NCBI GenBank assembly: GCA_965247095.1
Contig: OZ251997.1
Location: 2,595,689 to 2,659,688, forward strand
Direction: 5' to 3'
Origin: Candidatus Multivorans sp.
GTDB lineage: Bacteria > Acidobacteriota > Thermoanaerobaculia > Multivoradales > Multivoraceae
Length of the DNA: 64,000 nucleotides
Numbering within the stretch: position 1 is the stretch's first letter; every line of letters starts with the position of its first letter. Below the pieces are notes generated by a model. The model searched no databases. It saw nothing but the letters and a program-made list of their open reading frames with translations, and was not told where the DNA came from. Shown piece by piece: positions 1 through 50,474 of the stretch. A program made the translations under genes and the position numbers.

Positions 1-184
1 CGAACCCGCCCGAAAACAGGCCGGGCCGGCCGGTCAGTACGACGGCTCTGGCATCGTCTGCGGCACGGTCGAGCATGGCATTGACGGCAGCGATCATGGG
101 CGGTCCGAAGACGTTGGCCTTGCCGTCGTCCAGGGTGACCAGGGCCACGTCGCCAACCTGCTCGTAGGTGGTCGGTTCAATCAT
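1..184 (-). CDS. Enoyl-CoA hydratase/isomerase (crotonase) family protein, N-terminal part; continues off the left edge
   Basis: Minus-strand ATG at 184-182 reads MIEPTTYEQVGDVALVTLDDGKANVFGPPMIAAVNAMLDRAADDARAVVLTGRPGLFSGGF, a typical crotonase N-terminus. It is absent from the ORF track because there is no stop in the window. Confidence 0.75.
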   Translation of the reverse strand, partial: MIEPTTYEQVGDVALVTLDDGKANVFGPPMIAAVNAMLDRAADDARAVVLTGRPGLFSGGF

Positions 185-230
185 GAATCAGCTCCCTTGG
201 TGTCTGCCCCTCGGGTCAGGGGCGCTTCAT

Positions 231-1400
231 TCAGTTTGCCACCTTGATCTCGCGGATCTTCTTGAGCGGGACCGCGGTGATCTTCTCCGTCAGCCGGTAC
301 TCGAGGTCGCCCGGGTAGACCACCCACAGATGATCGAGACCGAGGTCCTTGCTGACCGTGTGCATCGACTTGGTCGTCCGGGGGGCATCCGCGCACTTGA
401 ACTCGAATCCCCAGCGCCTGCCGCCGCGGAGCAGCATGAGGTCCAGTTCCGCGCCCCGTTGGGTGCCCCAGAAGCATGCCTGGCGCGCACCGAACGCGAT
501 CAGGGTCTGTTCCAGGGCGAAGCCCTCCCAGCTTGGACCGTAGACGGGGTGGCGGACGAGGTCGTCCATCGATTCCAGCCCCAGCAGGTGGTGGAGAATG
601 CCGGAATCGCGGAGGTACACCTTGGGCGCCTTGACGACGCGTTTGCCGACGTTCTCGAACCATGGTTGGAGCACCCGGATCATGAACGTCCCGGCCAGCA
701 GGTCGCGGTAGTGGTTCACCGCGTTGACGCTGACACCCATCGAGCGGCTGAGCGCCGACGCGTTCCAGGTCTGCGAGTGGGCGTGCGCCAGCATGGTCCA
801 GAAGCGGCCTAGCGCCTCCGGCGACACCCTCGACCCGAGTCCCGGCACATCGCGCTCCAGGAACGTGCGCGCGAACGACTCCATCCACAACATGCAGGCG
901 GCATCCGACTCCGCCAGGTAGGCCAGTGGGAAGCCGCCGCGCATCCAGAGCCGGTCCTGGTTCTCCGCTCCCACCTCGTCGAGTGAGAAGCCGCTCACGT
1001 CGGCGAACGAGATGCGCCCAGCCAGGGTCTCGGAAACGCCGCGGATCAGGTCCCAGGAGGCGCTGCCCAGGAGCAGGAAGACGGCTTTCCGCGCAGGGTC
1101 GTCGCAGATCGGACGGAGAATCTCGAACAACTCGGGTACGCGCTGAACCTCGTCGATCACGATCAGCCCCTCGCCGCTTCGAAGGAGCCGCTCCGGAGTC
1201 GCGCGGAACGCCTCGCGAACCGCAGCCACCTCCAGGTCGTAGACCGTGGAGGGTCCCGTCCACGCCGCCACGATCTGTTGGGCGAGCGTCGTCTTGCCCA
1301 CCTGCCGAGCCCCCAGGAGAGCGGTGACCGGTGACTGGGAGAGTCTCCAGAGTGTGGCGTCGAGCAGGCGCTGTCGGGCGGTAGATTGTCGCATATTCAC
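231..1400 (-). CDS. AAA+ ATPase with C-terminal DUF4143 / PD-(D/E)xK-like nuclease module (COG1373-type)
   Basis: 389-aa ORF. Walker A is GARQVGKTT and Walker B is LIVIDEVQ. The C-terminus has AELDLML...GFEFK, a D...ExK pattern. Confidence 0.85.
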   Translation of the reverse strand: MNMRQSTARQRLLDATLWRLSQSPVTALLGARQVGKTTLAQQIVAAWTGPSTVYDLEVAAVREAFRATPERLLRSGEGLIVIDEVQRVPELFEILRPICDDPARKAVFLLLGSASWDLIRGVSETLAGRISFADVSGFSLDEVGAENQDRLWMRGGFPLAYLAESDAACMLWMESFARTFLERDVPGLGSRVSPEALGRFWTMLAHAHSQTWNASALSRSMGVSVNAVNHYRDLLAGTFMIRVLQPWFENVGKRVVKAPKVYLRDSGILHHLLGLESMDDLVRHPVYGPSWEGFALEQTLIAFGARQACFWGTQRGAELDLMLLRGGRRWGFEFKCADAPRTTKSMHTVSKDLGLDHLWVVYPGDLEYRLTEKITAVPLKKIREIKVAN

Positions 1401-1500
1401 CCTCAGAGGTGAGGTTTACGACAATAAACCGAGTTGGCGGGCTTGTCCAGCGGTGCTCAGGCGGGTGCTTCGGCCTCGTGGAACTCCTTCGCCTTGGGAC

Positions 1501-2952
1501 CTATGTGCGCTTGAGGACCTTCTCGATGATCTCTCTAGCGGCCCGGCGTGACTCGGCAGACTCCGCGATGGCTTGGAACACCTTCCGATACGTGGCAACG
1601 TCCTCGGTTCTGACGTTCGTCAGCCGCGGGCGGCCACGCTGTGCCCGGAAGTGGGTGAGCCTGCGCTCGATGCTCTCTGCTCGGTCGAGCAAGCCCGCAT
1701 CCCACCCGTCTGTTGTGCGAAGTACGTCTCGAATCCGACCTAGCCGAGTAAGGTCGTGTTCAATCAACCGGCGAGCTACTTCGGCAGTCAGGTACCCAGA
1801 TCGCGCAAGCTCGTACGTCTCCTCCGAGTCCGCAATTGCCGCTGCGAACCTGCGCTCGCGCGTTCTCGTTGCTGAGGTGTTTCTGCAGCGCTCCGCCAGT
1901 CGGCGGAAGATCGCTCCCAGGTGGTTCTCCAGATTTCTCGTGTGGGGTCCGGGCTCGAAGTAGTCTCGCCGGCCGTTCGGGACGATCCTGGGGTCCAGAA
2001 TGTGTATCTCCCCTACGGCCCACCTATTGAGGCGGTCCTCCTTGAACATATGGTCGAAGACGCCTTCGCCGCCGACTTGGATGTTCCCGCATCGCGCTCT
2101 GAGTCCTCTGATACCCGCGCTCTTGGGGATTGCTCCGAGGTAAGACGTGTGGGCAAGCCACCCCGCTGCCGCTCGCTCGCGGCTGTCGATCTTGGGCACG
2201 TCGAACACTTCGAGGGCGCTGAAGGCGTCGCTTCGGCCGGCAGAGAACTCAATGCCCTCGGCATGGGGCCTGGTAACGGCATCGTCGCCGTCGATGGAGA
2301 CGTTCATCGCGTACAGCGCATCTCCAACATACTCTTCGACCATCTCGCGGAAGGGAAAGGCGGTTGAGAGAGGCACTGGACAGACCTCCGCGACGTAGCT
2401 GTGAACCCTCTGCCGGTTCAGGACAGAGCCAGCCGCGTAGCGGGCGACGCCACGGACCTCTACTTCGAAGTACTGGTCGGGCTCTTCGTCGGCATCCAGT
2501 TGTTCCACAGTGACGAAGTCACCTATTCGCTGTTCCGTGTCGGCTAGGTCGTGGTTCCTCAGACGGAGGGCGTCCCAAGTGACGCGGACAGGAGGCTGGT
2601 CCGCGCTGGCCCTGGTGGTGAAAGCGACTGCCTCTGCGAAAGCCAGACCAGCCAGGCGACCGATTCCGCGAAATCCCCTATTGCTGGCGGCGCGCTTGGT
2701 GCTTTGGCCGACCGGAATCAACGAGTCGACGGCTTCCTGGAACGTCAGGCCGGGGCCGTAGTCCCGGATGCGGATCTGGGCCTGCCGAGGGTCGAGGTGA
2801 ATCTCGACTCGGCCGGATCCTGGACTTCCTGTAGTCGCGTCCGCTGCGTTCTGGAGATACTCGCGGTAGAGCGTCAGCGGATCGTCGTACATCCCCGACG
2901 TGACCAGCCGAAGAAGGCTGTGGCCGAGCGCTGGTTCGTTGGAGCTGCTCAT
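1501..2952 (-). CDS. GHKL-superfamily ATPase (HATPase_c_3 / Hsp90-MORC-like)
   Basis: 483-aa ORF. Bergerat-fold motifs are EYLQNAADA (N-box), DYGPGL (DxGxG) and GFRGIGRLAG (G-rich lid), encoded at about nt 2749-2862. GGGGAG Shine-Dalgarno lies just upstream of the ATG at 2952. Confidence 0.8.
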   Translation of the reverse strand: MSSSNEPALGHSLLRLVTSGMYDDPLTLYREYLQNAADATTGSPGSGRVEIHLDPRQAQIRIRDYGPGLTFQEAVDSLIPVGQSTKRAASNRGFRGIGRLAGLAFAEAVAFTTRASADQPPVRVTWDALRLRNHDLADTEQRIGDFVTVEQLDADEEPDQYFEVEVRGVARYAAGSVLNRQRVHSYVAEVCPVPLSTAFPFREMVEEYVGDALYAMNVSIDGDDAVTRPHAEGIEFSAGRSDAFSALEVFDVPKIDSRERAAAGWLAHTSYLGAIPKSAGIRGLRARCGNIQVGGEGVFDHMFKEDRLNRWAVGEIHILDPRIVPNGRRDYFEPGPHTRNLENHLGAIFRRLAERCRNTSATRTRERRFAAAIADSEETYELARSGYLTAEVARRLIEHDLTRLGRIRDVLRTTDGWDAGLLDRAESIERRLTHFRAQRGRPRLTNVRTEDVATYRKVFQAIAESAESRRAAREIIEKVLKRT

Positions 2953-3061
2953 GCTCTCCCCACTTGGAGACGGCCGTTCAGGTGATGGCTAGGCCGCCGT
3001 TGAAGGGCTAGCCGTTGTACCACAAGCAACGGGCCAGTAGCTGGCAGAGATCGCTTGGAGG

Positions 3062-4702
3062 CTAGCTCGCAGCCAGGACCTTCGTCGCCCGTGAGCGGGT
3101 GGCGGCGAGCGCCTCCTCGTGGCTGAACAGACCGGCGTCCTCCACGAACTCCTCTTCGCTGGGCATGGCCGGATCGGGATTGAGGGACGGGAACAACGGC
3201 AGTACCCGGTCCCGGACAGTCCCGGGAGCATCCTTCGTGTTGAGCGCATGGAAGCGGAGGAGCTGTCGAGTGGTGGCGTCGCGGGCTCGGTCGTTACTGG
3301 CGCGCTGACACAGGGCCCGTAGCTCGCCGTCCCCTCTAGCCTGAGCGAGGAAGGCGATGAACTCCCTTCTCTCCGACTCGGACAGTCGGGCTCGCAGCGT
3401 GTCGTACTCGTCCCGTGCTCCGGACTGCTCGTACTGCTCTCGGTGGAAGATGAGCGCGTGGGGCAACTCCAGTAGCTGCAAGAACTCCTCCTGGTCCCTT
3501 CCATAGGCGCGCTCGAAGAAGCTCGGGTTGCCGCTGACTACGCCACGGGTGGCCTGCAGCATGATCTGGAAGGACCGCAGGTAGTAGCGGTTCCAGCGCC
3601 TTCCCACGTGTGAGCGGTCCTTCAGCGTCACCGGTTGGTAGCGCATCGGGAACGACCAGATGCGAACGCCGAGCTCTTCGTTCAGGCCGATGTTCAGGCG
3701 CATCCGCTCGTACAGGTCCTCCGGGGAGTCCATGAAGTTGTACAGCATGTAGTTCGACAGCGACGTGATGCCGTTGTCAGCCGCCATCCTCACCGCGGTG
3801 GTGTAGATCTTTCGTAGTCCGATGTGGTCGAAGGCGATCCGGAGGGGGCTGATGCAGATAGTGGCCATCTCGCGCAGGTACATTGGGGACTTGACGAGAA
3901 TCCTTGCGTCCACACCCTGGTTGAAGTCGACGCGGCGCTTCACCGGCCGCTGATCGTTCCGCCTCAGCTTGGCTCCCTGCTCGAAACCGAGGTCGCGAAT
4001 CTCGGCGATGACCTCCTTGTACCGGGCGGACGCAGTGATGTTGTTGTCCATGAGCACGAGGTCCTTCTTGGGCCCGTGTCTCGCGTCTACCCCGTTGACG
4101 AGGGCGGCGAGGGGCGGCATTTCGCGCTGCGCACCCTCAAGTTTCGGGACGCCGCAGAAGGAGCACTTCCGTATGCAGCCCCTTGAGGCATAGCCGAAGT
4201 AGGCGTCCCGCACCGGATAGGTGTAGTCGAGCTGCTCCAGGATGGAGTAGTCCGGCACCATCTCCTCGATTGGAGGGCCGTCAAGGTCGTCCGCACCGAA
4301 CTCGAAGTCCTCCGCGCGAAGCTGAAGGGCTCTTGCCGGCGGGCCGTCCAGCAGTCCCGCGATGAAGCGGACCCCCGCCCACCGTGGCTCCTTGAGGAAC
4401 TCCTCGTGCATGAGCGAGGCAGCGATTCCGCCGACGAAGACCCGTTCGGGCTGGTTACCAGCCGATTGAATGGCGAAGTCGATGGTTTCGGCGGTGCGCT
4501 TCCACTCGAAGCTGAAGAGCGTCGTGACGTAGACGCGGTCCCACGGCTCCAGGAAGAGGCCCTTTTCCGACACACCTTTCGCGAGCGTCACCGCGTCGCC
4601 ACGCTGCCGGTGGTAAGCCGCGATCTTCATGAGCCCGAGAGGCGGGTACTTGTTGCGGTAGCCCGGCTCCAGGAGAAGCACGCGCTTCGTCGGCTCCGTC
4701 AT
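3062..4702 (-). CDS. Radical SAM enzyme with N-terminal B12-binding-like domain (COG1032-type); substrate unknown
   Basis: 546-aa ORF. The N-terminus reads LLLEPGYRNKYPPLGLMKIAAYHRQRGD. There is a single CxxxCxxC motif, CIRKCSFC (C176/C180/C183, nt 4154-4177). No C-terminal Cys-rich SPASM/twitch region is present. Confidence 0.85.
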   Translation of the reverse strand: MTEPTKRVLLLEPGYRNKYPPLGLMKIAAYHRQRGDAVTLAKGVSEKGLFLEPWDRVYVTTLFSFEWKRTAETIDFAIQSAGNQPERVFVGGIAASLMHEEFLKEPRWAGVRFIAGLLDGPPARALQLRAEDFEFGADDLDGPPIEEMVPDYSILEQLDYTYPVRDAYFGYASRGCIRKCSFCGVPKLEGAQREMPPLAALVNGVDARHGPKKDLVLMDNNITASARYKEVIAEIRDLGFEQGAKLRRNDQRPVKRRVDFNQGVDARILVKSPMYLREMATICISPLRIAFDHIGLRKIYTTAVRMAADNGITSLSNYMLYNFMDSPEDLYERMRLNIGLNEELGVRIWSFPMRYQPVTLKDRSHVGRRWNRYYLRSFQIMLQATRGVVSGNPSFFERAYGRDQEEFLQLLELPHALIFHREQYEQSGARDEYDTLRARLSESERREFIAFLAQARGDGELRALCQRASNDRARDATTRQLLRFHALNTKDAPGTVRDRVLPLFPSLNPDPAMPSEEEFVEDAGLFSHEEALAATRSRATKVLAAS

Positions 4703-4899
4703 TTGGCCAGCATCCGGGTCGCGACCTTGCGACTCTTCCCGAACTCGAAGTCCACCATCTTCCTCGTTACCGGGTCATTCTGCAGTCGTCGGACAGCGTG
4801 ACCCTGCTCCTGCCACGCGAGGCTGATGCCGAAACCGCTCGAGACGCGCGTTAGCATATCAATGGTGCGCCGCTGGCCTCTCTCGCTCAAGCGCGTCAT
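4699..4899 (-). CDS. Possible 66-aa hypothetical protein translationally coupled to the radical SAM gene
   Basis: Internal ATG at 4899 of track ORF 4699..5091 gives MTRLSERGQRRTIDMLTRVSSGFGISLAWQEQGHAVRRLQNDPVTRKMVDFEFGKSRKVATRMLAK. Its TGA overlaps the radical SAM ATG (ATGA). No convincing RBS and no recognisable family. Confidence 0.3.
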   Translation of the reverse strand: MTRLSERGQRRTIDMLTRVSSGFGISLAWQEQGHAVRRLQNDPVTRKMVDFEFGKSRKVATRMLAK

Positions 4900-5032
4900 G
4901 GGCCGGTCTGTCTCGCTCCTCGCCGCGCCAGCGAAGACCGGGCCGCGAGGCCAACTCCAAGATGGTCGAGCTTGTGAGTATTGTCGCATCCAGCTTCGAC
5001 CTCTGCCTCTCGCTTGTGGGACACCAGTCCTA

Positions 5033-7363
5033 CTAAACCGCCTGAGATTCAGCGATATCTTCCGGAAAGTACTTCTCGACCTTCTCAACATACTGGTTGA
5101 CGAAGGCGACCTGGTCCGGGGTCAGGACACCGCGCTCAGGGTGCGCCACGATGTTGCGAATATCGTTGAGTTTCTTGATCCATTGCGTGTTTGCCTTCAT
5201 GTTGTCCCTGTTACTCGCGTCCAGCGATATCACTTCTTTGAATAGCTGCCAATTGCGGTGACATATGTCGATATAGTTTATCAGAAAGAGTTGAGATTCT
5301 TCATTGCCCTCACGTCGCCGCTCTTCCCACCGGGCCATGCATTGCTGGCGGATCGTGAGCGGGATTCCTTCCGTCCACCACTCTGTGCCCTGCGCGCCAT
5401 AGTGTCCCTTCAACGCCACGATGACGTAGTCAAAGAGCCTACGCTGTATCTTTCGCACCTTGGCGCTCGCTTCTTCTGTACCCGCTTCATCGCGGGAATC
5501 CAAGTACTGCTGCAGCCCTGGCGGCCTGAAGCTGGGGATCGTCTGGCCAATATGCGCCTCCAAACCGTAGGCCTGCCGCCGCACGGCTGTCAGGGAAGAG
5601 CCAATGCGCCTAAAGGACTGGATCTCTTGCGGTGATGCGTTCTTCAAGTAGCCGACCAAGACCTGAAGATACGGCCGGATTTCCCCGAAGGTCTCTTCTG
5701 CATTGAAGAGACTGAGGTCCACGCCGTCCGTGCGACGGACATGGTCAGCAATATCTTCAATAACGTGAAACAGAGCCCGAATGCCGTTGTTGGTACACAG
5801 ATATCCACCGGCTCGGTCGCCGAGCTCCCAGTGGCTCGCGAGCCCCGCCGCGAACATGTTGAGGCACTCCGAGAGCACCCATAGGGCCTTCCTGAGGTTC
5901 GCGTTGTAGTCGTCGGTTCTGGCCGTAGACAGGGGGCCCGGCACAACCGCACCTCTAGCGAAGGCTCCCAACAGCTTGGCAACTCTGAGCCCGTCCCGCA
6001 CCGAAGTCTGTGTCAGGCAGCGATAGTGGCTCTTCCTCTTTCCGGTGACGACCAGGCGGTCATGGAGCGGCGAGGTGCTGTCGCGGTTGAGGCGGGAGGC
6101 GATACGCGAGAGTAGGGCCTGAAACGCTTCTTCACGGTCGGAAGAGCCCCAATGAAGGTCAGCGTAAAGCTCGACCAAGAGTCCTGTGCTCACCTTGACC
6201 TGCTTGCTGTTGATATCGATGAAGAGGTTCATCTCCTCCTCGGAAGGTAGGTTTTCATAGGCCAGCACGGACAGGACGGTTGAATCCTTGTTGAATCCCT
6301 CTTGTGCTCGCGCATAGGCGTAGCCATAGAGCCTATGCTGGCCGTCGATGATCCAGGCCGAGGCGTAGTTCGGTGGCAGATAGAGTGTGCCCCAGGCCTC
6401 GTCACCGTAGGTCTGCTTCGCATCGAAACGCATCCGAGTTTTCTTGCGGTTCTTCAAGTTGACAACGATATTTGTCGGAAACCTGCCGCCGCCATTGATG
6501 TATTGTGCGATCTTCTTCAGCCGGCGCGGCTGGAGCATGCGCTGGTATGTTTCCAAATTGTCGATGTCCCGGCTTGCCTTGTGGCCAACATAGGCGATCT
6601 TCAAGAGCTCGCCAGGGCTGATGAGGAAAGTGTAGAACGTCTCGCCGCCCATCCTGCCGCGGGTCGCTACGACTTGTCGGACTAGGCCGGGGATCTTCTG
6701 GCCGCCGAACATGTGCCCCAAGAACTGGTAGCGGGCCGCGCGTTTGAGGTGCTTCACGAGCTTCGCATAGTAGTCGAGTTCCCCGTCCGTGACGACCGCA
6801 ATCTCCGCCTTCTCGCACTTCGCAAGGTCCGCATCGCTCCATGAGACATTTCGTGTGGCGATGATAAATCTGACTTTGAGCCCCGACTGCCGGCCGTAGG
6901 CCTTGCGGACCGACTTGAGCAAGTTGCCCCGGATTGCCGTGATGTTCTCGATCAGCGGCGCCATGCGCTTCGTGCCCGGGGTGCCACGCTGCGTGCACTC
7001 GACGATGATGACGGTTTCGTCGTCCTTGGCGAACACATCGATCTGACGTCCTGGCGGGCCATCTTCGACGGCGATCGTGAACTTGCGGCCTTTGTTCATT
7101 TCATCGAAGCCCATCTGAGCTAGGATGCACCAAACTTCGTCCTCAAGCTGCTCGTCAGCAGGCTTCTCCTGGGCCATTCGCGTTGACTTGGCGTTCTTTC
7201 TGACCGTCCGCCAACCGTTAGCTGCTTCCAGCTTGACCTTTTGAGCGACAAGCTCCTTCGACGAACCCGAGACAGTCTTATAGATATCCGGCTTTTTCCG
7301 GCTCCTGAGCTCGGATGTGATCTCATCGCCGGATAAGAGGGGGTCTAGGTATTGGTCGGTCAT
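5033..7363 (-). CDS. DGQHR-domain (DndB/DpdB ParB-like) protein with C-terminal HEPN-like R-x4-H motif
   Basis: 776-aa ORF. It contains WIIDGQHRLYGY (nt 6332-6346), FPTNIVVNL, and LFIDINSKQVKV. The C-terminus reads KKLNDIRNIVAHPERG (RNIVAH at nt 5141-5158). AGGGAG RBS lies upstream of the ATG at 7363. GC is visibly lower than in flanking DNA. Confidence 0.85.
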   Translation of the reverse strand: MTDQYLDPLLSGDEITSELRSRKKPDIYKTVSGSSKELVAQKVKLEAANGWRTVRKNAKSTRMAQEKPADEQLEDEVWCILAQMGFDEMNKGRKFTIAVEDGPPGRQIDVFAKDDETVIIVECTQRGTPGTKRMAPLIENITAIRGNLLKSVRKAYGRQSGLKVRFIIATRNVSWSDADLAKCEKAEIAVVTDGELDYYAKLVKHLKRAARYQFLGHMFGGQKIPGLVRQVVATRGRMGGETFYTFLISPGELLKIAYVGHKASRDIDNLETYQRMLQPRRLKKIAQYINGGGRFPTNIVVNLKNRKKTRMRFDAKQTYGDEAWGTLYLPPNYASAWIIDGQHRLYGYAYARAQEGFNKDSTVLSVLAYENLPSEEEMNLFIDINSKQVKVSTGLLVELYADLHWGSSDREEAFQALLSRIASRLNRDSTSPLHDRLVVTGKRKSHYRCLTQTSVRDGLRVAKLLGAFARGAVVPGPLSTARTDDYNANLRKALWVLSECLNMFAAGLASHWELGDRAGGYLCTNNGIRALFHVIEDIADHVRRTDGVDLSLFNAEETFGEIRPYLQVLVGYLKNASPQEIQSFRRIGSSLTAVRRQAYGLEAHIGQTIPSFRPPGLQQYLDSRDEAGTEEASAKVRKIQRRLFDYVIVALKGHYGAQGTEWWTEGIPLTIRQQCMARWEERRREGNEESQLFLINYIDICHRNWQLFKEVISLDASNRDNMKANTQWIKKLNDIRNIVAHPERGVLTPDQVAFVNQYVEKVEKYFPEDIAESQAV

Positions 7364-7577
7364 GCCGCTGCTCCCTGGTGAGTCGACTATCTCGCATCAT
7401 GTCGCTGGAGGCGACATTCGTGGACCTGTGCCTCAGGGTGTTCCGCGGACGCAGTACCGGAAGGCGAAGGAAGGGCGTTGAAGCTGGACGTGAGTTTCGG
7501 GAGGCTAGCACTTCGGTTGCTGGGAGTCAGATCGGCCCGGAACCTGTCAACGACATTGACACAGCGGGGTTCTGGAT

Positions 7578-8576
7578 TTACTGAGTCGTCTCTGCAGTCT
7601 CGTTGTCGGGCTTGTTGATCCAGACGGCCTGGGGCAGTGGCGTATGCATCGGTTGGCCGCCGACGAATCGTTCGGGGGAGCTTTCCCAGGCGGCGCTCAG
7701 CGTGCGTTGGCGCTGCTCGATCACGGCTTGCGCCCGGCCGTAGTGGACGGTCTCGGGGGTCAGCATGGCGATGCCGGCATGGCGGTGTTCCGTGTTGTAC
7801 CAGGGGAAGAAGGACCTGCAGTAGTCGGTCGCGGCGTCCTGGTTGGGGAAGCGGCTGGGGAAGTCGGGGTGGTACTTGAGGGTCTTGAACTGTGCTTCGG
7901 AGTAGGGGTTGTCGTCGCTGACCCGCGGGCGGCCCAGGGACCGGTTCACGCCGAGGCGGGCGAGCAGTTGGGCGGTACCCTGGCTGGTCATGGGGGCGCC
8001 TCGATCGGAATGCAGGGTCAGGACATGGGGCTTGACGCCGTGCTTGAGGCAGGTCTCCTCGATGAGCCTTTGGGCGAGCGCGGAGTTCTCGCGGTCGGCG
8101 ACCATCCAGCCGACCGCGTAGCGGCTTAGGAGGTCAAGCAGGACGTAGAGGTAGTAGTAGGTCCAGGTCTGCGGTCCGAGCAGCCTGGTGATGTCCCACG
8201 ACCAGACCTGGTTGGGCGCGACAGCGACCAGCTCCGGCTTGGCGTACGACGGATGGACGCGCTGGTTGCGGCGGTCCCTCACGGGGTGGTTCGCTTCGAG
8301 GATGCGGTACATCGTGCGCTCCGAGCACAGGTAGCGGCCCTCGTCGAGCAGGGTGGCCACCACTTCTCCCGGCGAACGATCGACGAAACGCGGCGACGCA
8401 AGCGTGGCCTCGACCCGTTTCCGCTCGATCTGGCTCAGTGCCCGGGCAGGCGTGGGGCGGGGCTGCCGTCGCCCGGGAGCGGGCCTCGCACGACGATAGA
8501 AGGTCGATCGCGATACGCCCAGCGCCCGGCACGCCGGCGCGACGCCGACCTGCCGGGCCAGGGACCTTGCCGCCAT
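7578..8576 (-). CDS. IS3-family transposase OrfB (rve DDE integrase core)
   Basis: Contains NQVWSWDITRL, HSDRGAPMTS and DNPYSEAQFKTLKY. The ATG at 8576 overlaps the orfA stop (TGATG). The frame stays open upstream, consistent with an OrfAB fusion. Confidence 0.85.
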   Translation of the reverse strand: MAARSLARQVGVAPACRALGVSRSTFYRRARPAPGRRQPRPTPARALSQIERKRVEATLASPRFVDRSPGEVVATLLDEGRYLCSERTMYRILEANHPVRDRRNQRVHPSYAKPELVAVAPNQVWSWDITRLLGPQTWTYYYLYVLLDLLSRYAVGWMVADRENSALAQRLIEETCLKHGVKPHVLTLHSDRGAPMTSQGTAQLLARLGVNRSLGRPRVSDDNPYSEAQFKTLKYHPDFPSRFPNQDAATDYCRSFFPWYNTEHRHAGIAMLTPETVHYGRAQAVIEQRQRTLSAAWESSPERFVGGQPMHTPLPQAVWINKPDNETAETTQ

Positions 8577-9061
8577 CAGCAGTCCTTCCCGTCTTCGAGG
8601 CTGAATCCCAGCAGCCCTGCAACTTTTCCCTGGACGTCCAGGATCGTGTGCGCGGCGGCGACTTCCCTCTCGAGACGCTTGACCTTCGCTTCCAGCCGCT
8701 TCACCTTCGGCATCAGAGGGTTGGCCTCGTTCGGCTTGCGGCCCCGCTTCTTCGGCCTCAGACCGGAAAGCGCGCCCTCGCGCCGCGCCTTGCGCCAGTT
8801 GGCCAGATGGGAGCTGTACAGACCCTCTCGCCGCAGCAGCCGACCCACCTCGCCGCGGTGGGTGCATCGGTCCGCTTCCTCCAGAATCCGCAGCCGGTAC
8901 TCCGCCGTGAACTGCCGCCTGGTCGGTCTCGCCAGCACTTCCGGGTCGGGAACCGCCCCGGCGGGCGCCGCGCCGGCCGCGGGGGCCTCGTCGCTACGCT
9001 CCTCAACCCCCGCGGCCGGGAGCTCCGAGCCGCCGCCAAACCTCTGCTCTCGTCTTGACAT
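8576..9061 (-). CDS. IS3-family transposase OrfA (HTH)
   Basis: Sequence starts MSRREQRF and contains RRQFTAEYRLRILEEADRC and LLRREGLYSSHLANWRKAR plus a leucine-zipper-like tail. I preferred the internal ATG at 9061 of track ORF 8576..9091. Confidence 0.8.
   Translation of the reverse strand: MSRREQRFGGGSELPAAGVEERSDEAPAAGAAPAGAVPDPEVLARPTRRQFTAEYRLRILEEADRCTHRGEVGRLLRREGLYSSHLANWRKARREGALSGLRPKKRGRKPNEANPLMPKVKRLEAKVKRLEREVAAAHTILDVQGKVAGLLGFSLEDGKDC
8623..8630 (-). other. Candidate -1 programmed frameshift site (G GGA AAA G) for an OrfAB fusion
   Basis: Minus strand reads CAG GGA AAA GTT in the orfA frame. A -1 slip continues as GKSCRAAGIQ..., which is the orfB frame seen in track ORF 7578..8867. 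Confidence 0.35.
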
Positions 9062-9183
9062 TGATCCTCCTTGCCAACGTGTGCCCTCCACTATTCAACG
9101 GGATGGCCGCTGTGTCACGTACGTTGGCAGAGAGGGGCCGTAGGGGCGCTGACGCGTGGTTCGGAACGTGTTGGCTTCCGCCC

Positions 9184-10380
9184 TCAGAGCATTCGCGCGG
9201 CGATCCAGGGCAGGGCGACCGCGGTGCCCAGCACGCTGCCGAGGTTGCTCAGCACGACGACCAGGAGCACGCGTGTAAGGCGGTTGGACCAGAAGCCGCG
9301 CGCGGAACTGAGGCTGTCGGCGAGGTTCTCCATGTCCGCCACCAGGGGCCGGCGGAGCAGCGCCTGGACCAGTCCCGCGACCCAGCCGGCGGCGATCAGC
9401 GGGTTCAAGCTGGTCAGGGGCGCGGCGGCGAAGGCCGAGGCGATGGTCAGCGGATGCCCCAGGGCGATCGCGGCCCCTAGGGCGGACAAGCTGCCGTTGA
9501 TCAGGATCCAGAGGTAGATCGACTCGACCGACCGCTCGCGATCGCCGGTCAGGAAGCCGTAGGCCAGGAGCGCGATGATCGCGATCGGCAACGCCCACTT
9601 GACGATGCGCGGCCAGAGCGGCGGCTCGGGCAGTCGCTCGAGTTCCTCCAGATCGCAGGGCGAGCCCGCGAGGCTCGTGATGCCGGGCACGTGCCCGGCG
9701 CCGACCACGGCCACCGTGCGCGGACCTGCCGACTGGCGCAGCTTCTCGGCCATGTACGCGTCCCGTTCGTCGATCAGGGTGCCCTTGACGCTGGGCAATG
9801 CCTCGGCGAGGGCGGACACCAGGTCGCTCAGGTTGCCGCTGTCGCGGAGCTGCTCGATGTCCTCTTCCTTCAGGTCGTCGCCGACGAAGGCGCTGCCGGC
9901 CAACTGGGTCATCACCTTCGTCCGCTGCCAGAAGCCGAGTGAGGCCCAGGTGCGCTTCAGCGAGATCTGGATGTCGCGGTCGATCAGTTCGAGGCGTGCG
10001 CCGCGTTCCCGGGCCCGGGCGATCGCCTCTCTCATCTCGGCGCCGGGCTCGATGCCGAAGCGCTGGGCGATGCGCCGCTGGAAGGAGTGCATCAGGAACG
10101 AGCTGAGCAGCAGCGCCGCCTTGCCCTCGCGCAGGACCTGGAAGATGTCCAGCTTGCGCCACGACTCCTGGTCCTCCAGGTTGCGGTAGCGGGCCTCGCA
10201 GAGTTCGACGCAGACGGTGTCGGGCTCGAGCGCCTCGATCGCCTCCTTCGTGTCGCGCACGCTCTGCGGCGAGACGTGCGCGGTGCCGACCAGGAAGACC
10301 TCCCGCTCGTCGAGTTCGAGTCGCTGCACCGAGGCGGGCAGGTCGGGGGGCGCCGGTTGGCGCTCGGCTTCGGACATCAT
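9184..10380 (-). CDS. TraB/GumN family protein
   Basis: Contains VFLVGTAHVSPQSVRD, VCVELCEARY and ERDAYMAEKL, plus C-terminal transmembrane segments. The start was moved to the MMSEAERQ ATG at 10380. Confidence 0.85.
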   Translation of the reverse strand: MMSEAERQPAPPDLPASVQRLELDEREVFLVGTAHVSPQSVRDTKEAIEALEPDTVCVELCEARYRNLEDQESWRKLDIFQVLREGKAALLLSSFLMHSFQRRIAQRFGIEPGAEMREAIARARERGARLELIDRDIQISLKRTWASLGFWQRTKVMTQLAGSAFVGDDLKEEDIEQLRDSGNLSDLVSALAEALPSVKGTLIDERDAYMAEKLRQSAGPRTVAVVGAGHVPGITSLAGSPCDLEELERLPEPPLWPRIVKWALPIAIIALLAYGFLTGDRERSVESIYLWILINGSLSALGAAIALGHPLTIASAFAAAPLTSLNPLIAAGWVAGLVQALLRRPLVADMENLADSLSSARGFWSNRLTRVLLVVVLSNLGSVLGTAVALPWIAARML

Positions 10381-10486
10381 GGCAGCGCGGAGCGTAGCCG
10401 ACGGCCGGCTGGAGGCGAAACCGCGGCGGCGTCGAGTACGATGTTGTGTTCCAGGTCGTGATGGCAGGGCTGATGGGAGGATTGGA

Positions 10487-12016
10487 ATGGAAGTGATGAG
10501 AGACCATTGCCCCGTGGCGGCACGGGCGCTGGCGATGGGCGCCCTGGTGTTCCTTGCCTGCACCGCGCCCGACGCCGATGCCCCCGTCGCGGATGCCGGC
10601 GCCGGCCCGCGGCCGAACATCGTTCTCATCCTTGCCGACGATCTCGGCTACGCCGACATCGGCATCTACGGCAGCGAGGTGATCTCGACCCCGAACATCG
10701 ACGCGCTGGCCGCGAGCGGCGTTCGCTTCACGGCGGGCTACGTCAGCCATCCGGTGTGCAGTCCGTCGCGGGCCGGGCTGATGACCGGGCGCTACCAGCA
10801 GCGCCACGGCTGGGAGTTCAACCCGGCCGGCCGGGATGTCGGCGCCGGCATGAGTCTCGAGGAGACGACCCTGGCCGACCGGATGAGGGCTCTGGGGTAC
10901 CGGACCGGCATGATCGGCAAGTGGCACCTGGGCCGCCAGGCGCCCCATCATCCGGTGAGCCGCGGCTTCGACGAGTACTTCGGCGTGCTCGAAGGCGGCA
11001 GCATCTTCATCGACTCCAGCCTGCCGGGCGTGGAGTACGGCTCGATCCGCGGCGAAGACGGGCCGACGGTCCGCCGGAACAAGGTGCTGCGGGGGTTCGA
11101 GGAAGAGAAGGTCGACCGCTACCTGACCGACGTGTTCACGGAGGAAGCGACAAGCTTCATCGAGCGCAGCGCGAGCGGTGAAGAACCCTTCTTCCTCTAC
11201 CTCAGCCACACGACGCCGCACACGCCGCTCCAGGCCACGGCCGAGTACCTGGACGGCTACCGCCACATCGAAGATCAGCGCACCCGCGTCTACGCGGCCA
11301 TGGTCGCGTCGCTCGACGAGAGCGTGCGGCAGGTGGTCGAGACGCTCAAGGCACAGGGCGTGTACGAGAACACGATGATCGTCTTCGCCAGCGACAACGG
11401 CTGCGCCGGCTACATTCACGCCGCCTGCTCGAACGCGCCGCTCTTCGGTTTCAAGCGCTACCACCACGAAGGCGGCGTGCGGATTCCCTTCATCATCAGT
11501 TGGCCGGAAGGAATCGAGGGAGGGCGGACGTTCAATCAACCGGTGATCACCCTCGACTTCACGGCGACCTTCACGGCTGCGGCGGGCCAGGAAGCAAAGG
11601 CGGGCGACAGCGTGAACCTGCTGCCGTACATGACCGGCGAGGCGGACGGCGCGCCGCACGAGTACCTCTACTGGCGGGCCGGCGCCAGCGTCGCGATCCG
11701 CGACGCCCAGTACAAGCTGATCAAGCTGAACCGCACCGAGTTCCGGCCCGACGATCTGCGCGGGGACGGCCGTTTGCAGCCGCCCGAAGGCGGCTGGCCC
11801 ACGGATTCGCCCCACGGGCAGGCCACCCTGCTCTACGACCTGGAAGCCGACATCGGCGAGTTGAACAACCTGGCGGCGGAGCAGCCGGAGGTCGTCGCCC
11901 GTCTCGAAGCCGAGTTGGATGCGTGGCGCGCCACGTTGCTGAGCGAGCCGATCCTGCCGGGTGTGCGTTCCACGATCACCGAGATCGATGGTGAGTGGGT
12001 CCAATTGGTATTCTGA
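10487..12016 (+). CDS. Cys-type (formylglycine) sulfatase
   Basis: Contains PNIVLILADDLGYADIG and the CSPSRAGLMTGR (C-x-P-x-R) motif, with a signal-like N-terminus. GGGAGG RBS lies before the ATG at 10487. Confidence 0.9.
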   Translation: MEVMRDHCPVAARALAMGALVFLACTAPDADAPVADAGAGPRPNIVLILADDLGYADIGIYGSEVISTPNIDALAASGVRFTAGYVSHPVCSPSRAGLMTGRYQQRHGWEFNPAGRDVGAGMSLEETTLADRMRALGYRTGMIGKWHLGRQAPHHPVSRGFDEYFGVLEGGSIFIDSSLPGVEYGSIRGEDGPTVRRNKVLRGFEEEKVDRYLTDVFTEEATSFIERSASGEEPFFLYLSHTTPHTPLQATAEYLDGYRHIEDQRTRVYAAMVASLDESVRQVVETLKAQGVYENTMIVFASDNGCAGYIHAACSNAPLFGFKRYHHEGGVRIPFIISWPEGIEGGRTFNQPVITLDFTATFTAAAGQEAKAGDSVNLLPYMTGEADGAPHEYLYWRAGASVAIRDAQYKLIKLNRTEFRPDDLRGDGRLQPPEGGWPTDSPHGQATLLYDLEADIGELNNLAAEQPEVVARLEAELDAWRATLLSEPILPGVRSTITEIDGEWVQLVF

Positions 12017-12078
12017 GCCCGGCTGCTGACGTGCGCCGTGCCGCCCTCACCGCGGCGAACGATGCGGGCTGCTGAAGC

Positions 12079-13881
12079 ATGAGCGGTACACCCAAGGACG
12101 CTGAGCGCGGCCCTGCCGACGGTCCAGGTGCTGTGATGCGCCGCCGCCTCGAACAGGTACTGGCCGCCGGCCTGCAGTCGCCCATCTTCCGCTGGGAGAC
12201 CTGGCGGACGTTGTGGCCGCTGCGCCGCCGGGTTCAGGCGGCGCTGCTGGCCGTCCTCGCGGTGGCGGCGTTCTCGGCGTGGCGGGTTCAGCAGAAGGTC
12301 GGACAGGCGCGGCTCGAACTCGGTCTGGCGGAAGCGGCGACTGCCGGCGAGGGATTCGAGCGACTCGCCGAGCGGTCTCCAGGCCTGCTCAGCCTGGCCG
12401 CCCGGCACGCGGCCGGGGAGGGCCGCTGGCGCGAAGTGGCGGCGTTGTACGAGGACCATGCCGAACACCTGCCGCCGGCACTGCTGGCCGCGGCCGAGGT
12501 GGAACTCGGTGTGAATCGCGCCGAGGAAGCTGGAGCAGAATCGGCCGCGGACGAACCGCCGCCGGCGTCTGCGTTCGAGCGGCGTCTGCGGCGGGCACAG
12601 GCGGTCGACGCCTCGGGCGTGCAGCAACTGCTCTTCGACCGGCGGGGCCGGCCATTGGGATCGATCGGCGACGACCGTTCGTTGACGCTGGTAGAGGATC
12701 TGCCGGCCGGCCTGGTGCCGGTCGAGTTGGCGACCCATCTGCTGCCTTCCGCCCTCCAGCCGCCGGGTCTTGCCGCCGCCGGACCGGGGGCGATGAGCAG
12801 GTCCGCCGGCGCGCGAGCCCTGCGGCTGACGATCGACCGGGCCTGGAGCGAGGCGGCCGACACGGCGCTGGGCAGGGAAGAGGGCGCGATCGCGATCGTG
12901 GAGATCCCGTCGGGCGCGGTCCTGGCCGCGGTGAGCAACCGCGGTCGAAGCCGCCGGTGGCGGTCGAACGGCGACAGCGTCCTCGATCCGCGCGAGCCGG
13001 CGTCGATCGCCAAGCTGATCACCACGACGGCGGCGATGCGGGCCGGTCTCGACCCCGACCAGGAGATCGCCGACATGACCTGCCGCGGCTCGGTGCTGAT
13101 GGACGGTCAGCGGCTCTACTGCAGCGCGATCAACGGCCGGCTCCGGGGGCTCTCCGCAGCGATGGCCAGTAGCTGCAACGTCGCCTTCGCCAAGCTCGCG
13201 ATGGATGTCGGCGACCGGGCGCTGGTCGAAGAGTACGAACGCTACGGCTTCGTCATCGGCGGCAGGAGTAGCGAGGCGGTGCCGCGGAACGCCGTCGGTG
13301 TGGTGCATGAGTACCGTCACCCGGGCAAGCAGCTCGGCGATCTCTCGATCGGCCTGGAGGAGGCTTCGATCACACCGTTGGGGGCGGCCCTGTTCGCCGC
13401 CACCCTCTCGGACGGCCGCCGGCGCGAGCCGAGCTTCGTTCTGCAGGCGGACGGACTTCTGGGCATCTCGCCACGGACACCGGTCGGCGACGGTCCGCGC
13501 GAGGGCGTCGAGGTTCTCGACCCGTCCTGGCTGCCGGTGCTGCACGAGTCGATGCGCGCGGTCGTGTCTCCGGGCGGCTCGGCGAACCGGGTGGCGCCGA
13601 AGCGTCTCCGGGTGGCGATGAAGACGGGCACGGCGCGCGATCCGGACAAGCCGTTCCACGTGAACTACGCCGGCTTCTTCCCCTCCGACGAGAGCCAGCC
13701 GCCCCGATACGCCTTCGCGGTCAGGGTCACCGGCCAGCCGACGTCGGCACGGGTTCGCCGCGCCGGGTACGCCGTCACGTTCCGTCTGCTGCGGGCGCTC
13801 GACAGGTTGGTCGGCGAAGAGATCGAGACAGCGTCCCGGGTTCCGCAACGGCTGGCGGCAGCGACCGGAGCGAGCAAGTGA
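12079..13881 (+). CDS. Penicillin-binding protein, transpeptidase domain (PBP2-like)
   Basis: All three PBP motifs are present: SIAK (SxxK), SCN (SxN) and KTGT. There is an N-terminal membrane anchor. Confidence 0.8.
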   Translation: MSGTPKDAERGPADGPGAVMRRRLEQVLAAGLQSPIFRWETWRTLWPLRRRVQAALLAVLAVAAFSAWRVQQKVGQARLELGLAEAATAGEGFERLAERSPGLLSLAARHAAGEGRWREVAALYEDHAEHLPPALLAAAEVELGVNRAEEAGAESAADEPPPASAFERRLRRAQAVDASGVQQLLFDRRGRPLGSIGDDRSLTLVEDLPAGLVPVELATHLLPSALQPPGLAAAGPGAMSRSAGARALRLTIDRAWSEAADTALGREEGAIAIVEIPSGAVLAAVSNRGRSRRWRSNGDSVLDPREPASIAKLITTTAAMRAGLDPDQEIADMTCRGSVLMDGQRLYCSAINGRLRGLSAAMASSCNVAFAKLAMDVGDRALVEEYERYGFVIGGRSSEAVPRNAVGVVHEYRHPGKQLGDLSIGLEEASITPLGAALFAATLSDGRRREPSFVLQADGLLGISPRTPVGDGPREGVEVLDPSWLPVLHESMRAVVSPGGSANRVAPKRLRVAMKTGTARDPDKPFHVNYAGFFPSDESQPPRYAFAVRVTGQPTSARVRRAGYAVTFRLLRALDRLVGEEIETASRVPQRLAAATGASK

Positions 13882-16736: not shown

Positions 16737-18598
16737 CTCCCGACCGGCCGGACGAAGAACTCGTAGCCGAGGACGACGCGGTCATCGGCCGCGTATTCGC
16801 TCGTTCCCTCAAGGTACTGGCGGCGCTGGCCGTTGCCGCGCTTCTCGTGTTCGCGCTCCGTGTCGTCTTCCGGGCGGCGCCCGAGGAGGCGAGGGAGATC
16901 CCGGTCGAGGCGCCGCGGGCCGTGGCGGCGGCGCCGGAGGTTCCGGTCATCTCCTTCACGGACGTCACGGCGGAGGCCGGCATCGACTTCGTCCATGTCA
17001 ACGGCGCCGAGGGCGATGCCCTGTTGCCGGAGACGATGGGTTCGGGCGCGGCCTTCTTCGACTTCGACCGCGACAGCGACCAGGACCTGCTGCTGGTCAA
17101 CTCGACCGGGTGGAAGGCGGCGCCGGAGACCGGCCCGACGATGGCGCTGTACGAGAACGACGGCGCCGGGCGGTTTGCCGACCGGACCGCCGCACTCGGT
17201 CTGGCGACGAGCTTCTACGGCACCGGCGTTGCGGTCGGCGACGTGGACAGCGACGGCTGGGTCGATCTGTTCATCTCCGCGGTGGGGCCGAACCGCCTGT
17301 TCCGGAACGTGGAAGGAGCTCGCTTCGAGGACGTGACCGTGAGGGCGGGCGTGGCCGGCGCCGCCTCGGAGTGGAGCAGCAGCAGCGCCTTCTTCGACGC
17401 GGACGGAGACGGCGACCTCGACCTCCTGGTCGGCAACTACGTGCGCTGGTCGCGCGAGATCGACATCGAGGTCGGCTACCAGTTGACCGGAGTTGGGCGC
17501 GCCTACGGGCAGCCGGTCAACTACGGCGGCACGACCATGGACCTCTACCGGAACGACGGCTCGGGCGTCTTCGTCGATGTCTCGGAGGATGCCGGATTGC
17601 ACATCCTGAACCCGGCCTCGGATGCGCCGGTGGCGAAGACGCTGGGGCTGGCGCCGGTCGACATCGAGGGCGACGGCGATGTCGACGTGCTGGTCGCGAA
17701 CGACACGGTGCGGAACTTCCTGCTCGTGAACGACGGCAGCGGCGTCTTCACCGAGGAGGGAGGGAACTACGGCCTGGCCTACAGCCGCGACGGCGCGGCG
17801 ACCGGCGCGATGGGCGCCGATGCCGCCGATTTCCGCAACGACGGCGAACTCGGCTTCGCGATCGCGAACTTCGCCAACGAGATGACCTCGCTCTACGTCT
17901 CCCAGGGCGATCCGACGCTGTTCAGCGACGAGGCGATCACCGCCGGCATCGGCGCGCCGAGCCGCCGCGTGCTCAGCTTCGGCCTCTTCTTCTTCGACTA
18001 CGACCTGGACGGCCGGTTGGACCTGCTCCAGGTCAACGGCCATCTCGAGGACGACATTGAGGTCGTGGAACCCAGCCAGCGCTACCGGCAGCCGCCGCAG
18101 TTGTTCTGGAACGCCGGCTCAGGAGCGGCGTCGACCTTCGTGCCGGTCACGCCGGCGCCCGGCGACGGTCTGACCCGCGAGCTGGTCGGCCGGGGCTCGA
18201 CCTACGCCGACATCGACGGCGACGGCGACCTGGACATCCTGCTGCTCCAGACCGGCGACCGGCCGCTGCTGCTGCGCAACGACCAGAAGACCGGCCACCG
18301 CTGGCTGCGGTTCCGTTTGCGCGGCGACGGCGAGCGCGTCAACCGCGACGCGATCGGTTCCTGGGTTGAGGTCGAAGAGCGGACCACGGCTGGGCCTGTG
18401 GTGCAGCGGCGCCGCGTCATGCCGACCCGCAGCTACCAGAGCCAGGTCGAGCCGGTGGTGACGATCGGCCTGGGCGCCGCGTCGTCGGTCGACGACCTGG
18501 TGCGGATCGACGTGGTCTGGCCCGACGGTACCCGGCAGGCAGTCGAAGTCAACGGCCTCGACCGGGTCGTCGAGGTCGAGTACGGGTCTCCGAACTAG
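16733..18598 (+). CDS. CRTAC1-family protein (FG-GAP/VCBS repeats + ASPIC/UnbV domain)
   Basis: Repeated DxDxDGDLD FG-GAP motifs, and a C-terminal RWLRFRLRG...NRDAIGSWV...SYQSQ ASPIC/UnbV signature. The start overlaps the upstream stop. Confidence 0.85.
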   Translation: MTPDRPDEELVAEDDAVIGRVFARSLKVLAALAVAALLVFALRVVFRAAPEEAREIPVEAPRAVAAAPEVPVISFTDVTAEAGIDFVHVNGAEGDALLPETMGSGAAFFDFDRDSDQDLLLVNSTGWKAAPETGPTMALYENDGAGRFADRTAALGLATSFYGTGVAVGDVDSDGWVDLFISAVGPNRLFRNVEGARFEDVTVRAGVAGAASEWSSSSAFFDADGDGDLDLLVGNYVRWSREIDIEVGYQLTGVGRAYGQPVNYGGTTMDLYRNDGSGVFVDVSEDAGLHILNPASDAPVAKTLGLAPVDIEGDGDVDVLVANDTVRNFLLVNDGSGVFTEEGGNYGLAYSRDGAATGAMGADAADFRNDGELGFAIANFANEMTSLYVSQGDPTLFSDEAITAGIGAPSRRVLSFGLFFFDYDLDGRLDLLQVNGHLEDDIEVVEPSQRYRQPPQLFWNAGSGAASTFVPVTPAPGDGLTRELVGRGSTYADIDGDGDLDILLLQTGDRPLLLRNDQKTGHRWLRFRLRGDGERVNRDAIGSWVEVEERTTAGPVVQRRRVMPTRSYQSQVEPVVTIGLGAASSVDDLVRIDVVWPDGTRQAVEVNGLDRVVEVEYGSPN

Positions 18599-25931: not shown

Positions 25932-26166
25932 TCACTGGCAAGCTCCGCGATTGACAGGAGTTATCCATGAGGCAATAGTCAGTGTGTGCTCGGCCAGGAG
26001 ACCGTGCCCGGGCGTCCCACGTTGGGCATCGCCGACCTCCACCGCCGATGGTACTCCTCGGGCGGAGAGAGGGTGATACCGTGCCCGGCCCCCGGAGGGG
26101 CACTGACCTGCCGGTCACACTCCAGAGGCGATGGACGTCCGGTGCCCCGGACCAGGGTTCGCGGCA

Positions 26167-50397: not shown

Positions 50398-50474
<77 letters not shown>

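Follow-up and report, generated by a model that had tools for sequence, protein, structure and literature searches.

A chromosomal hotspot of 'Candidatus Multivorans' filled in separate layers, with one replaced gene inside a long-resident operon

Introduction

How does a run of AT-rich genes come to stand between two core genes of a high-GC chromosome? The question is raised by the left end of the 64-kb stretch of DNA analysed here (the window), a chromosome segment with a GC content of 0.675 overall, whose lineage a traB-based search placed in 'Candidatus Multivorans'/Thermoanaerobaculia (Acidobacteriota). There, an operon of three genes, encoding a DGQHR-domain (DndB/ParB-like) protein with a C-terminal HEPN domain, a divergent radical SAM protein and a GHKL ATPase, lies between a crotonase gene and a traB-family gene, and an IS3-family insertion sequence (IS) sits beside traB. 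A first-pass annotation, made from the sequence by eye, had read the operon as a compositional island, bounded by the IS element and acquired horizontally. The answer that we consider probable is a different one, namely that the site is a hotspot filled in at least four separate layers, with the three genes (hereafter the triad) as a putative conflict system. The features on which the argument turns are the following, all of the genes from crotonase to traB being on the minus strand.

1-184, minus strand: 5' end of an enoyl-CoA hydratase (crotonase) gene, the core left flank (translation MIEPTTYEQVGDVALVTLDDGKANVF...), beside the hotspot in most related loci
1486-9183, no strand: accessory block, missing from relatives in which only an AAA gene lies between traB and crotonase; left junction within 1451-1486
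1501-2952, minus strand: GHKL (HSP90/MORC-like) ATPase gene; HATPase_c 1.2e-4, below the Pfam cutoff; HSP90-family NCBIfam model 1.5e-11
3062-4702, minus strand: divergent radical SAM gene; N-terminal module resembling a Rossmann/cobalamin domain; Radical_SAM 1.4e-3, below cutoff
5033-7363, minus strand: DGQHR (DndB/ParB-like) gene, 776 aa; TIGR03187 (DGQHR) 3.2e-55; DndB 1.3e-12; C-terminal HEPN
7538-9136, minus strand: IS3-family insertion sequence, 1,599 bp; orfA 8576-9091, orfB 7578-8867, -1 frameshift
9184-10380, minus strand: traB-family gene, the core right flank; TIGR00261 3.3e-100

Results

Composition was scored in 2-kb windows against the part of the stretch beyond 10 kb (mean GC 0.682, standard deviation 0.023). 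Positions 5001-7000 have a GC of 0.579 (z -4.6) and a tetranucleotide L1 distance of z +6.1, both the most extreme values in the 64 kb, and a composition-normalised tetranucleotide correlation of z -5.7. Values for single genes, including GC at third codon positions (GC3), are given below; background genes mostly have a GC of 0.67-0.72 and a GC3 of 0.82-0.91.

DGQHR gene: GC 0.574, GC3 0.734, codon-usage distance z 2.6
GHKL gene: GC 0.628, GC3 0.722, codon-usage distance z 4.2
Radical SAM gene: GC 0.637, GC3 0.827, codon-usage distance z 0.0
AAA ATPase gene: GC 0.662, GC3 0.861, codon-usage distance z -0.3

The DGQHR gene had been judged far more AT-rich than the background without any calculation, and sliding-window GC, GC3 and tetranucleotides all bear this out, making it the strongest outlier of the 64 kb. 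The companion claim, that the radical SAM and GHKL genes are intermediate, holds in part: both are mildly low in GC and codon usage backs this for GHKL, but the radical SAM gene barely deviates. Over the stretch that they occupy the deviations are marginal, at z about -2 for GC and z 1.3-1.8 for tetranucleotides, and the low GC of the radical SAM gene resides mainly at second codon positions (GC2 0.43). By composition, therefore, the signature of acquired DNA is carried by the DGQHR gene (GC3 0.73 versus about 0.85) and by GHKL codon usage, and is marginal in the radical SAM gene. In every host sampled the DGQHR gene lies 2-8 GC points under its local context. The pool in which it circulates has a GC of about 51-59%, hence the sharp compositional step in this 68% GC genome.

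Synonymous divergence also separates the DGQHR gene from its neighbours. We compared the window with loci fetched from related and unrelated genomes or contigs (L-numbers), using Nei-Gojobori/Jukes-Cantor estimates of synonymous divergence (dS), which saturate above about 1.

dS versus L005: traB 0.21, sulfatase 0.31, AAA 0.22, GHKL 0.22, radical SAM 0.31
dS versus L006: traB 0.16, sulfatase 0.10, radical SAM 0.11 (AAA and GHKL not available)
dS versus L013: traB 0.50, sulfatase 0.50, GHKL 0.81, radical SAM 0.70 (AAA not available)
dS versus L022: traB 0.50, sulfatase 0.51, GHKL 0.84, radical SAM 0.83 (AAA not available)

Because the dS of the radical SAM and GHKL genes tracks that of the flanks, these two are old residents rather than recent arrivals in the window's lineage. 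The DGQHR gene alone is discordant. Its dS is 1.52 to the L005 allele (65% protein identity), as against 0.45 and 0.56 to alleles on L082 and L081, unrelated metagenomic contigs of 57-59% GC, with which it shares 75-76% of protein and 81-83% of nucleotide positions; the partner genes on those two contigs are 56-58% (radical SAM) and 34-36% (GHKL) identical to the window's. Among the matches listed, all 119 non-self cluster representatives reach 67-76% protein identity, compared with 65-67% for the sister-species alleles, and Mesorhizobium, a gammaproteobacterium and Algicella marina are among these closer sources. Any two of the alleles from the window, L005, L006 and L037 agree at only 68-72% of nucleotide positions, as against 94% between the traB genes of L005 and L006. 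A foreign origin of the DGQHR gene is clear, and the idea that the operon was acquired as one unit has to be given up.

The edge of the replaced segment can be narrowed to one intergenic zone.

4692-5032, no strand: breakpoint zone between the DGQHR and radical SAM genes, with a homologue in no fetched locus

Homology of 91% with L005 spans window positions 1-4691 and ends 11 nt short of the start codon of the radical SAM gene. The spacer between the two genes measures 330 nt here versus about 20-120 nt in five cassettes with the DGQHR gene directly before the radical SAM gene. In all fetched loci, blastn and tblastx found no homologue of this spacer, of the 175 nt upstream of the DGQHR gene or of the traB-IS spacer, and the last also gave 0 matches in a metagenome scan. 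As a separate observation, tblastn matched the DGQHR gene of L006 in two segments that differ in frame, so that its reading frame appears split near the 5' end, perhaps because the gene is a pseudogene or because the long-read assembly is in error.

The site itself is a chromosomal accessory-gene hotspot between the core genes traB and crotonase. Its state in related loci was read from tblastn and blastn comparisons with the window, the traB-sulfatase neighbourhood being common to 38 related genomes with TraB identities of 78-97%. Empty sites, with 25-175 nt from the traB stop codon to the crotonase start codon, occur in L007, L009, L019, L032 and L038, and in L017, L027, L028 and L036 an AAA ATPase gene is all that lies between traB and crotonase. 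These sites show the block to be accessory, from about 1451-1486 to 9183. In L017, for example, about 15 nt separate the stretches that match, by blastn, window positions 1-1450 and 9194-12019. The matches of L004 are to 9186 onwards, 1344-1462 and 1-194, and L004 keeps of the AAA gene the first codons only, an apparent remnant which shows that deletions, too, happen at the hotspot. The synteny thus puts the edges of the block within about 50 nt of the limits drawn in the first-pass annotation (1501-9129), and crotonase and traB do adjoin where the block is missing, apart from sites with the AAA gene alone between them. Model matches confirm both core genes that it had named as flanks, crotonase at the left edge and traB at 9184 (the crotonase orthologue of L002 matches ECH_1 at 1.4e-27). 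Its gene order left out the AAA gene between crotonase and GHKL, which is itself accessory.

Many genomes carry other genes in the same slot. In addition to regulators of the ImmA/IrrE type (HTH_3 plus Peptidase_M78), which lie directly 3' of traB in many genomes, the fillings include an Eco57I-like methyltransferase (L016), an SNF2 helicase (L013), a second GHKL gene (L022) and, in L006, an IS21 element (IstA/IstB) and an open reading frame (ORF) whose match to the transposase model DDE_Tnp_1 (IS4-type) is weak (0.0023, below cutoff). The latter two lie upstream of the L006 DGQHR gene; together with its apparently split frame they take up 13620-17598 and 17784-18025. On the traB tree the distribution of the operon is patchy: L005 and L006 have it at its position in the window, as L013 and L022 have its radical SAM-GHKL part, and L037 carries a DGQHR fragment, the sequence of L006 ending within the radical SAM gene at the edge of the fetched stretch.

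Several further features of the slot were noted. ORFs of about 376-417 aa recur directly past traB, at about 150-300 nt from it, in L002, L003, L006, L010, L013, L014, L016, L022 and L023; those scanned in full (L006, L022) are HTH_3 plus Peptidase_M78, and the L005 version is truncated to HTH_3 only. In L006, L013, L014 and L022 a conserved ORF of 168 aa follows, to which no Pfam model matches. The window lacks the module and has the traB-DGQHR spacer and the IS3 element in its place. In L001 (11190-21191), the closest relative found (TraB 97%), synteny breaks right after traB at the same ...CTGGAC junction as in the hotspot, and unrelated housekeeping genes, for PGI-like, trypsin-PDZ protease and PQQ dehydrogenase proteins, stand in place of crotonase.

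Could the block simply be ancestral, lost from the relatives, with a low GC intrinsic to its genes (for example, through amino-acid composition)? The radical SAM gene would suit such a history without transfer, having host-like codon usage (z 0.0), a GC3 of 0.83 and a GC deficit mainly in GC2, as would the co-divergence of the older pair with the flanks, the deletion remnant of L004, and a DGQHR gene that is under context GC in every host. We nevertheless regard it as unlikely, because the GC3 and the normalised tetranucleotide usage of the DGQHR gene deviate beyond what amino-acid usage explains, its dS is 1.5 to the sister allele versus 0.45 to alleles on unrelated 57-59% GC contigs, and the same cassette is found on a conjugative plasmid and in an integrative and conjugative element (ICE) of Proteobacteria. 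In addition, the compact traB-crotonase junctions of 25-35 nt in L009, L019 and L038 come from two separate clades of the traB tree.

The IS element at the traB end of the block belongs to the IS3 family, its transposase scoring 176 bits against the NCBIfam model transpos_IS3 (NF033516; cutoff 160). Inverted repeats lie at 7544-7567 and 9107-9130. A 19-nt end probe recovered five further metagenome copies, 91-96% identical, on LXNI01 contigs (L097, L102, L103, L104, L106), and a 108-nt end remnant lies in the hotspot of L023 (16599-16706). The five copies and the remnant share sequence up to 9136 and diverge beyond it, so the right end is 9136 rather than 9129, and the left end about 7538 by symmetry. 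Thus, the family assigned earlier to this element stands, on model score and frames, but its limits of 7545 and 9129 do not; its distance from the DGQHR gene, given as about 180 nt, is 174-181 nt to the start codon. With the left end at 7538, a candidate 3-bp target duplication (GCC) appears at 7535-7537 and 9137-9139. The element has a host-like GC of 0.675 and seems native to the lineage, since copies occur in one metagenome and a remnant in the L023 hotspot. These features are consistent with a late, independent and simple transposition into a traB-DGQHR spacer of about 220 nt.

The block is not an island bounded by this element, whose position at its edge is a coincidence; the IS did not deliver the block. 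It is present in a single copy (blastn found no second one in the 64-kb window, and no IS sequence at the left border, 1451-1500), and it is missing from the operon-carrying L005, L006, L013 and L022. Two other roles for it were considered. A composite transposon or IS-mobilised unit was rejected, as there is one IS copy only and the cargo is not bracketed; an IS-mediated adjacent deletion was entertained when no duplication was visible at 7545/9129, and was dropped after the end moved to 9136 and GCC was seen.

A recent acquisition of the whole DGQHR-radical SAM-GHKL operon in one event, marked or mediated by the IS3 element, can draw on the near-exact boundaries of a block that many relatives lack, on the below-background GC of all three genes, on an IS abutting one end, and on the mobility of the cassette elsewhere. 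We consider it very unlikely. The radical SAM and GHKL genes have the same dS as the flanks versus L005 and L006, the operon occupies the same site in four loci that are free of IS3, the history of the DGQHR gene is incongruent with that of its partners, and the IS, host-like in GC, is a single copy at one end that seems to have made its own target duplication. That the DGQHR gene was never replaced, and evolved very fast in place under diversifying selection, is hardly credible: divergence is spread evenly along the protein and its ratio of nonsynonymous to synonymous divergence (dN/dS), 0.16-0.36, is somewhat above that of its neighbours (0.11-0.21), as that history would have it, but the ratio is well under 1, dS to the sister allele is saturated next to genes at 0.2-0.3, and alleles of other phyla are closer than those of sister species. 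Even divergence at such a dN/dS speaks, therefore, for whole-gene replacement under purifying selection and not for local hypermutation.

What the triad encodes was examined through motifs, models and homologues, of which at least 2,125 were detected for the DGQHR protein and at least 6,882 for the radical SAM protein. In the former, the motifs IDGQHR and R-NIVA-H are conserved, R736-NIVA-H741 being invariant in 47 homologues, and the C-terminal region is helical in the structural model. The HEPN_Swt1 match is 1.3e-4, with a score of 22.6 below the Pfam cutoff of 27.5. With the Rx4-6H motif of HEPN RNases in an all-helical C-terminal domain, the protein is a predicted RNase. The N-terminal part (about residues 1-230) has a conserved D...E-C-T motif (QIDVFAKDDETVIIVECT), and its model weakly matches the CARF-nuclease proteins Card1, VC1899 and Cdn1 (Foldseek E 2e-3 to 1e-1); the protein may carry a third, nuclease-type domain. 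In the radical SAM protein, whose Pfam score is 19.3 versus a cutoff of 29.5, the CxxxCxxC motif (CIRKCSFC; C176-x3-C180-x2-C183) is invariant in 48 homologues. Its AlphaFold model (pLDDT 75) has TsrM and OxsB (both cobalamin-type) and MtaB as best folds, at E 6e-7 to 8e-6 and TM about 0.4, and the cluster motif together with the modelled barrel fold places it in the radical SAM superfamily. The GHKL translation has an intact N-box (EYLQNAADA) and G1 box (DYGPGL), and its homologues carry HATPase_c_3.

Beyond this lineage the triad is a conserved mobile cassette. In 5/5 unrelated contexts examined, the DGQHR-HEPN gene is adjacent to genes for a radical SAM protein (about 542 aa) and a HATPase_c_3 protein (about 515 aa).

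L081 and L082: beside toxin-antitoxin, patatin and DUF4238 genes
L083: Mesorhizobium, between chemotaxis genes
L084: Algicella marina, inside a type IV secretion/ICE region
L085/L086: gammaproteobacterial metagenome-assembled genome

On pNL1, a conjugative plasmid of Novosphingobium aromaticivorans, a long DGQHR protein is 62% identical over 99% of the length of the window protein, and its gene is convergent with an operon of short-DGQHR, radical SAM and GHKL genes. From organism and architecture it appears to be Saro_3948, a ParB-HEPN fusion listed among Swt1-like HEPN fusions (PMC3710099). That source lists the fusion only and nowhere uses the term 'radical SAM', so the operon is not described there. 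Viral contigs yielded only distant DGQHR relatives (29-34% identity), most of them with no partner genes. PADLOC-DB v2 held no complete catalogued system for the locus, the matches being at domain level only (DpdB and PDC-M34B for DGQHR-HEPN, PDC-S01 for AAA). A sequence search of the PDB returned a useful relative for none of the three proteins, and a description of the triad or of the 'Candidatus Multivorans' lineage was not found in the literature.

Variants of the cassette were also seen. A short (335-342 aa) DndB-like protein is encoded directly upstream of the radical SAM gene, besides the long protein, in L087 (pNL1, NC_009426; 6001-12499) and L082 (13100-14128). A PIN_8 protein and a second HATPase_c_3 protein are encoded beside the triad in L082 (17395-20854) and L083 (4328-7775). 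In L022 (6337-9684), genes for an unannotated 558-aa protein and a second GHKL protein precede the radical SAM gene at the position of DGQHR. That pair may be an alternative first module of the radical SAM-GHKL core.

The AAA gene next to crotonase is a further part of the same hotspot, and a palindrome overlaps its start.

231-1400, minus strand: AAA_14/DUF4143 ATPase gene (Pfam AAA_14 and DUF4143); PADLOC candidate PDC-S01 5.9e-80
1386-1424, no strand: 39-nt palindrome TTGTCG-N27-CGACAA, overlapping the AAA start codon

The gene is missing at the empty sites and stands alone in the four loci named above, and its dS matches the flanks (0.22 versus L005). It is accessory and of host-like composition, an older and separate layer of the hotspot. 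The palindrome is unique in the window (0.02 expected) and confined in relatives to the hotspot (L002, L004, L005, L013-L017, L021-L023, L025, L027, L028, L030, L036), where it lies at the AAA start and, upstream of the HTH_3-Peptidase_M78 genes, about 75 nt past traB. The inserted block of L002, L005, L015 and L016 has a copy on either side. An attachment (att) or recombination site would fit the palindrome, as would, equally, an operator for the XRE/ImmA-type regulators.

Elsewhere in the window, a second low-GC patch was found at 25200-27800 (GC 0.59-0.62, z about -3; tetranucleotide z about 3). Its ORFs (25257-25970, 26131-26934, 26931-27431, 27307-27810) have no Pfam match, and it may be another small accessory insertion.

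Discussion

The layering of this hotspot is read directly from the related loci. The first layer would be the AAA_14/DUF4143 gene, host-like and common to many relatives. The second would be the radical SAM-GHKL pair, probably at the site since before the split from L013 and L022, with its mildly low GC kept. The third would be the DGQHR-HEPN gene, first in the operon and seemingly a replaceable slot, with another allele in each related species (about 70% nucleotide identity); the window's allele would have been drawn from a lower-GC pool shared across phyla, and a donor pool of lower GC accounts, therefore, for the sharp outlier. Fourth and last, the IS3 element would have inserted itself into the traB-DGQHR spacer of 220 nt. 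Horizontal acquisition, the central suggestion of the first-pass annotation, thus survives in so far as the slot is accessory and the DGQHR gene foreign; it was not one event, and IS3 was not the carrier.

A number of observations weigh against this reading. In L013 and L022 the dS of the radical SAM and GHKL genes (0.70-0.84) exceeds that of the flanks (about 0.50), so strict vertical descent is unproven and flank-mediated exchange would look alike; vertical descent also demands several clean losses, since L013 nests among empty-site genomes in the traB tree. The history of the pair is either vertical with repeated loss or one of exchange among close relatives only, via homologous flanks. In an amelioration test, the window branch of DGQHR had an excess of AT->GC changes overall (141:92) and 56:58 at third positions. 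The four lineage DGQHR alleles all differ, none standing out as ancestral. We found no integrase, tRNA or unambiguous att repeats to account for entry of the block: Pfam and NCBIfam scans showed no integrase among the window ORFs, an Rfam search of 1-12000 gave no match, and the one tRNA in the 64-kb window (50398-50474) lies about 40 kb off, with no tRNA-linked integration apparent. The 3-bp duplication of the IS rests on a left end inferred by symmetry. For the conflict role, PADLOC gave no match for the radical SAM protein and, for GHKL, only E about 0.008 to TmtA. Finally, every comparison genome is metagenome-assembled, apparently from long reads to judge by chromosome-level records and contig names.

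As to function, domains and genomic context suggest that the triad is a mobile conflict system, directed against phages or plasmids. The ParB-like/HEPN protein would be its exchangeable, DNA-sensing nuclease or RNase effector, and the radical SAM protein and the GHKL ATPase would provide a modification or licensing activity, by analogy with the DNA-modifying enzymes that DndB and DpdB accompany. It is tempting to speculate further, though only tentatively, that the triad is a widespread, undescribed mobile immune or nucleic-acid-modification system, in which a cobalamin-type radical SAM enzyme would mark nucleic acid (DNA or RNA) or a nucleotide and the DGQHR-HEPN protein would be an exchangeable sensor-effector. 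If this were true, a turnover of the ParB-HEPN protein, by horizontal replacement, far faster than that of its enzymatic partners would explain why a single gene is the compositional outlier.

Seen as an island, the locus is a routine hotspot slot in which composition and synteny agree. The GC step, however, marks one recurrently replaced gene within a long-resident operon, and the IS is a bystander, which advises caution against calling an 'island bounded by an IS' from composition alone. The cargo is uncharacterised, a three-gene cassette found across several phyla and absent from PADLOC. Its pattern of turnover, with conserved enzymes and a swappable ParB-HEPN protein, points to the component that faces the invader and offers a starting point for experiments.

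Comparison with known systems places each part of the locus. The IS element resembles others of the IS3 family in its two overlapping -1 frames, its DDE domain (rve), its inverted repeats of about 30 nt at the termini and its candidate 3-bp duplication; its ends reach 7 nt further than the TG...CA limits drawn earlier, and nothing else about it is unusual. Chromosomal hotspots for defence and accessory genes between conserved core genes have been described in Pseudomonas, Vibrio and E. coli. Like them, the traB-crotonase slot is a fixed site between two core genes that is empty in some genomes, its cargo varies from relative to relative (a restriction-modification methyltransferase, an SNF2 helicase, ImmA/IrrE-type regulators, IS elements and candidate defence genes), and its variants need no dedicated integrase each. 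Unlike them, it lies in an uncultured acidobacteriotal host, its cargo here is no catalogued system, and the variable unit is one gene inside a conserved operon rather than a whole cassette.

The DGQHR protein shares with Saro_3948 its DGQHR plus HEPN architecture and its adjoining radical SAM and GHKL genes; in the window, unlike on pNL1, the gene for the long protein is the first of the operon. It also has the DGQHR/ParB-like domain of DndB (Dnd) and DpdB (Dpd), with a DndB Pfam score of 48 bits, and falls short of the equivalog scores (61.7 bits versus a cutoff of 300 for DpdB, and 86.5 versus 450 for DGQHR_dnd_1). Unlike in the Dnd and Dpd systems, no DndACDE or DpdA/C gene is adjacent, the neighbours being the genes for the radical SAM and GHKL proteins, with the AAA ATPase gene and IS3 further out; nor do DndB and DpdB have the extra N-terminal nuclease-like and C-terminal HEPN domains of the window protein. 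Both of these systems pair their DGQHR protein with an enzyme that modifies DNA, and the analogy hints at the role that the radical SAM protein may play in the triad.

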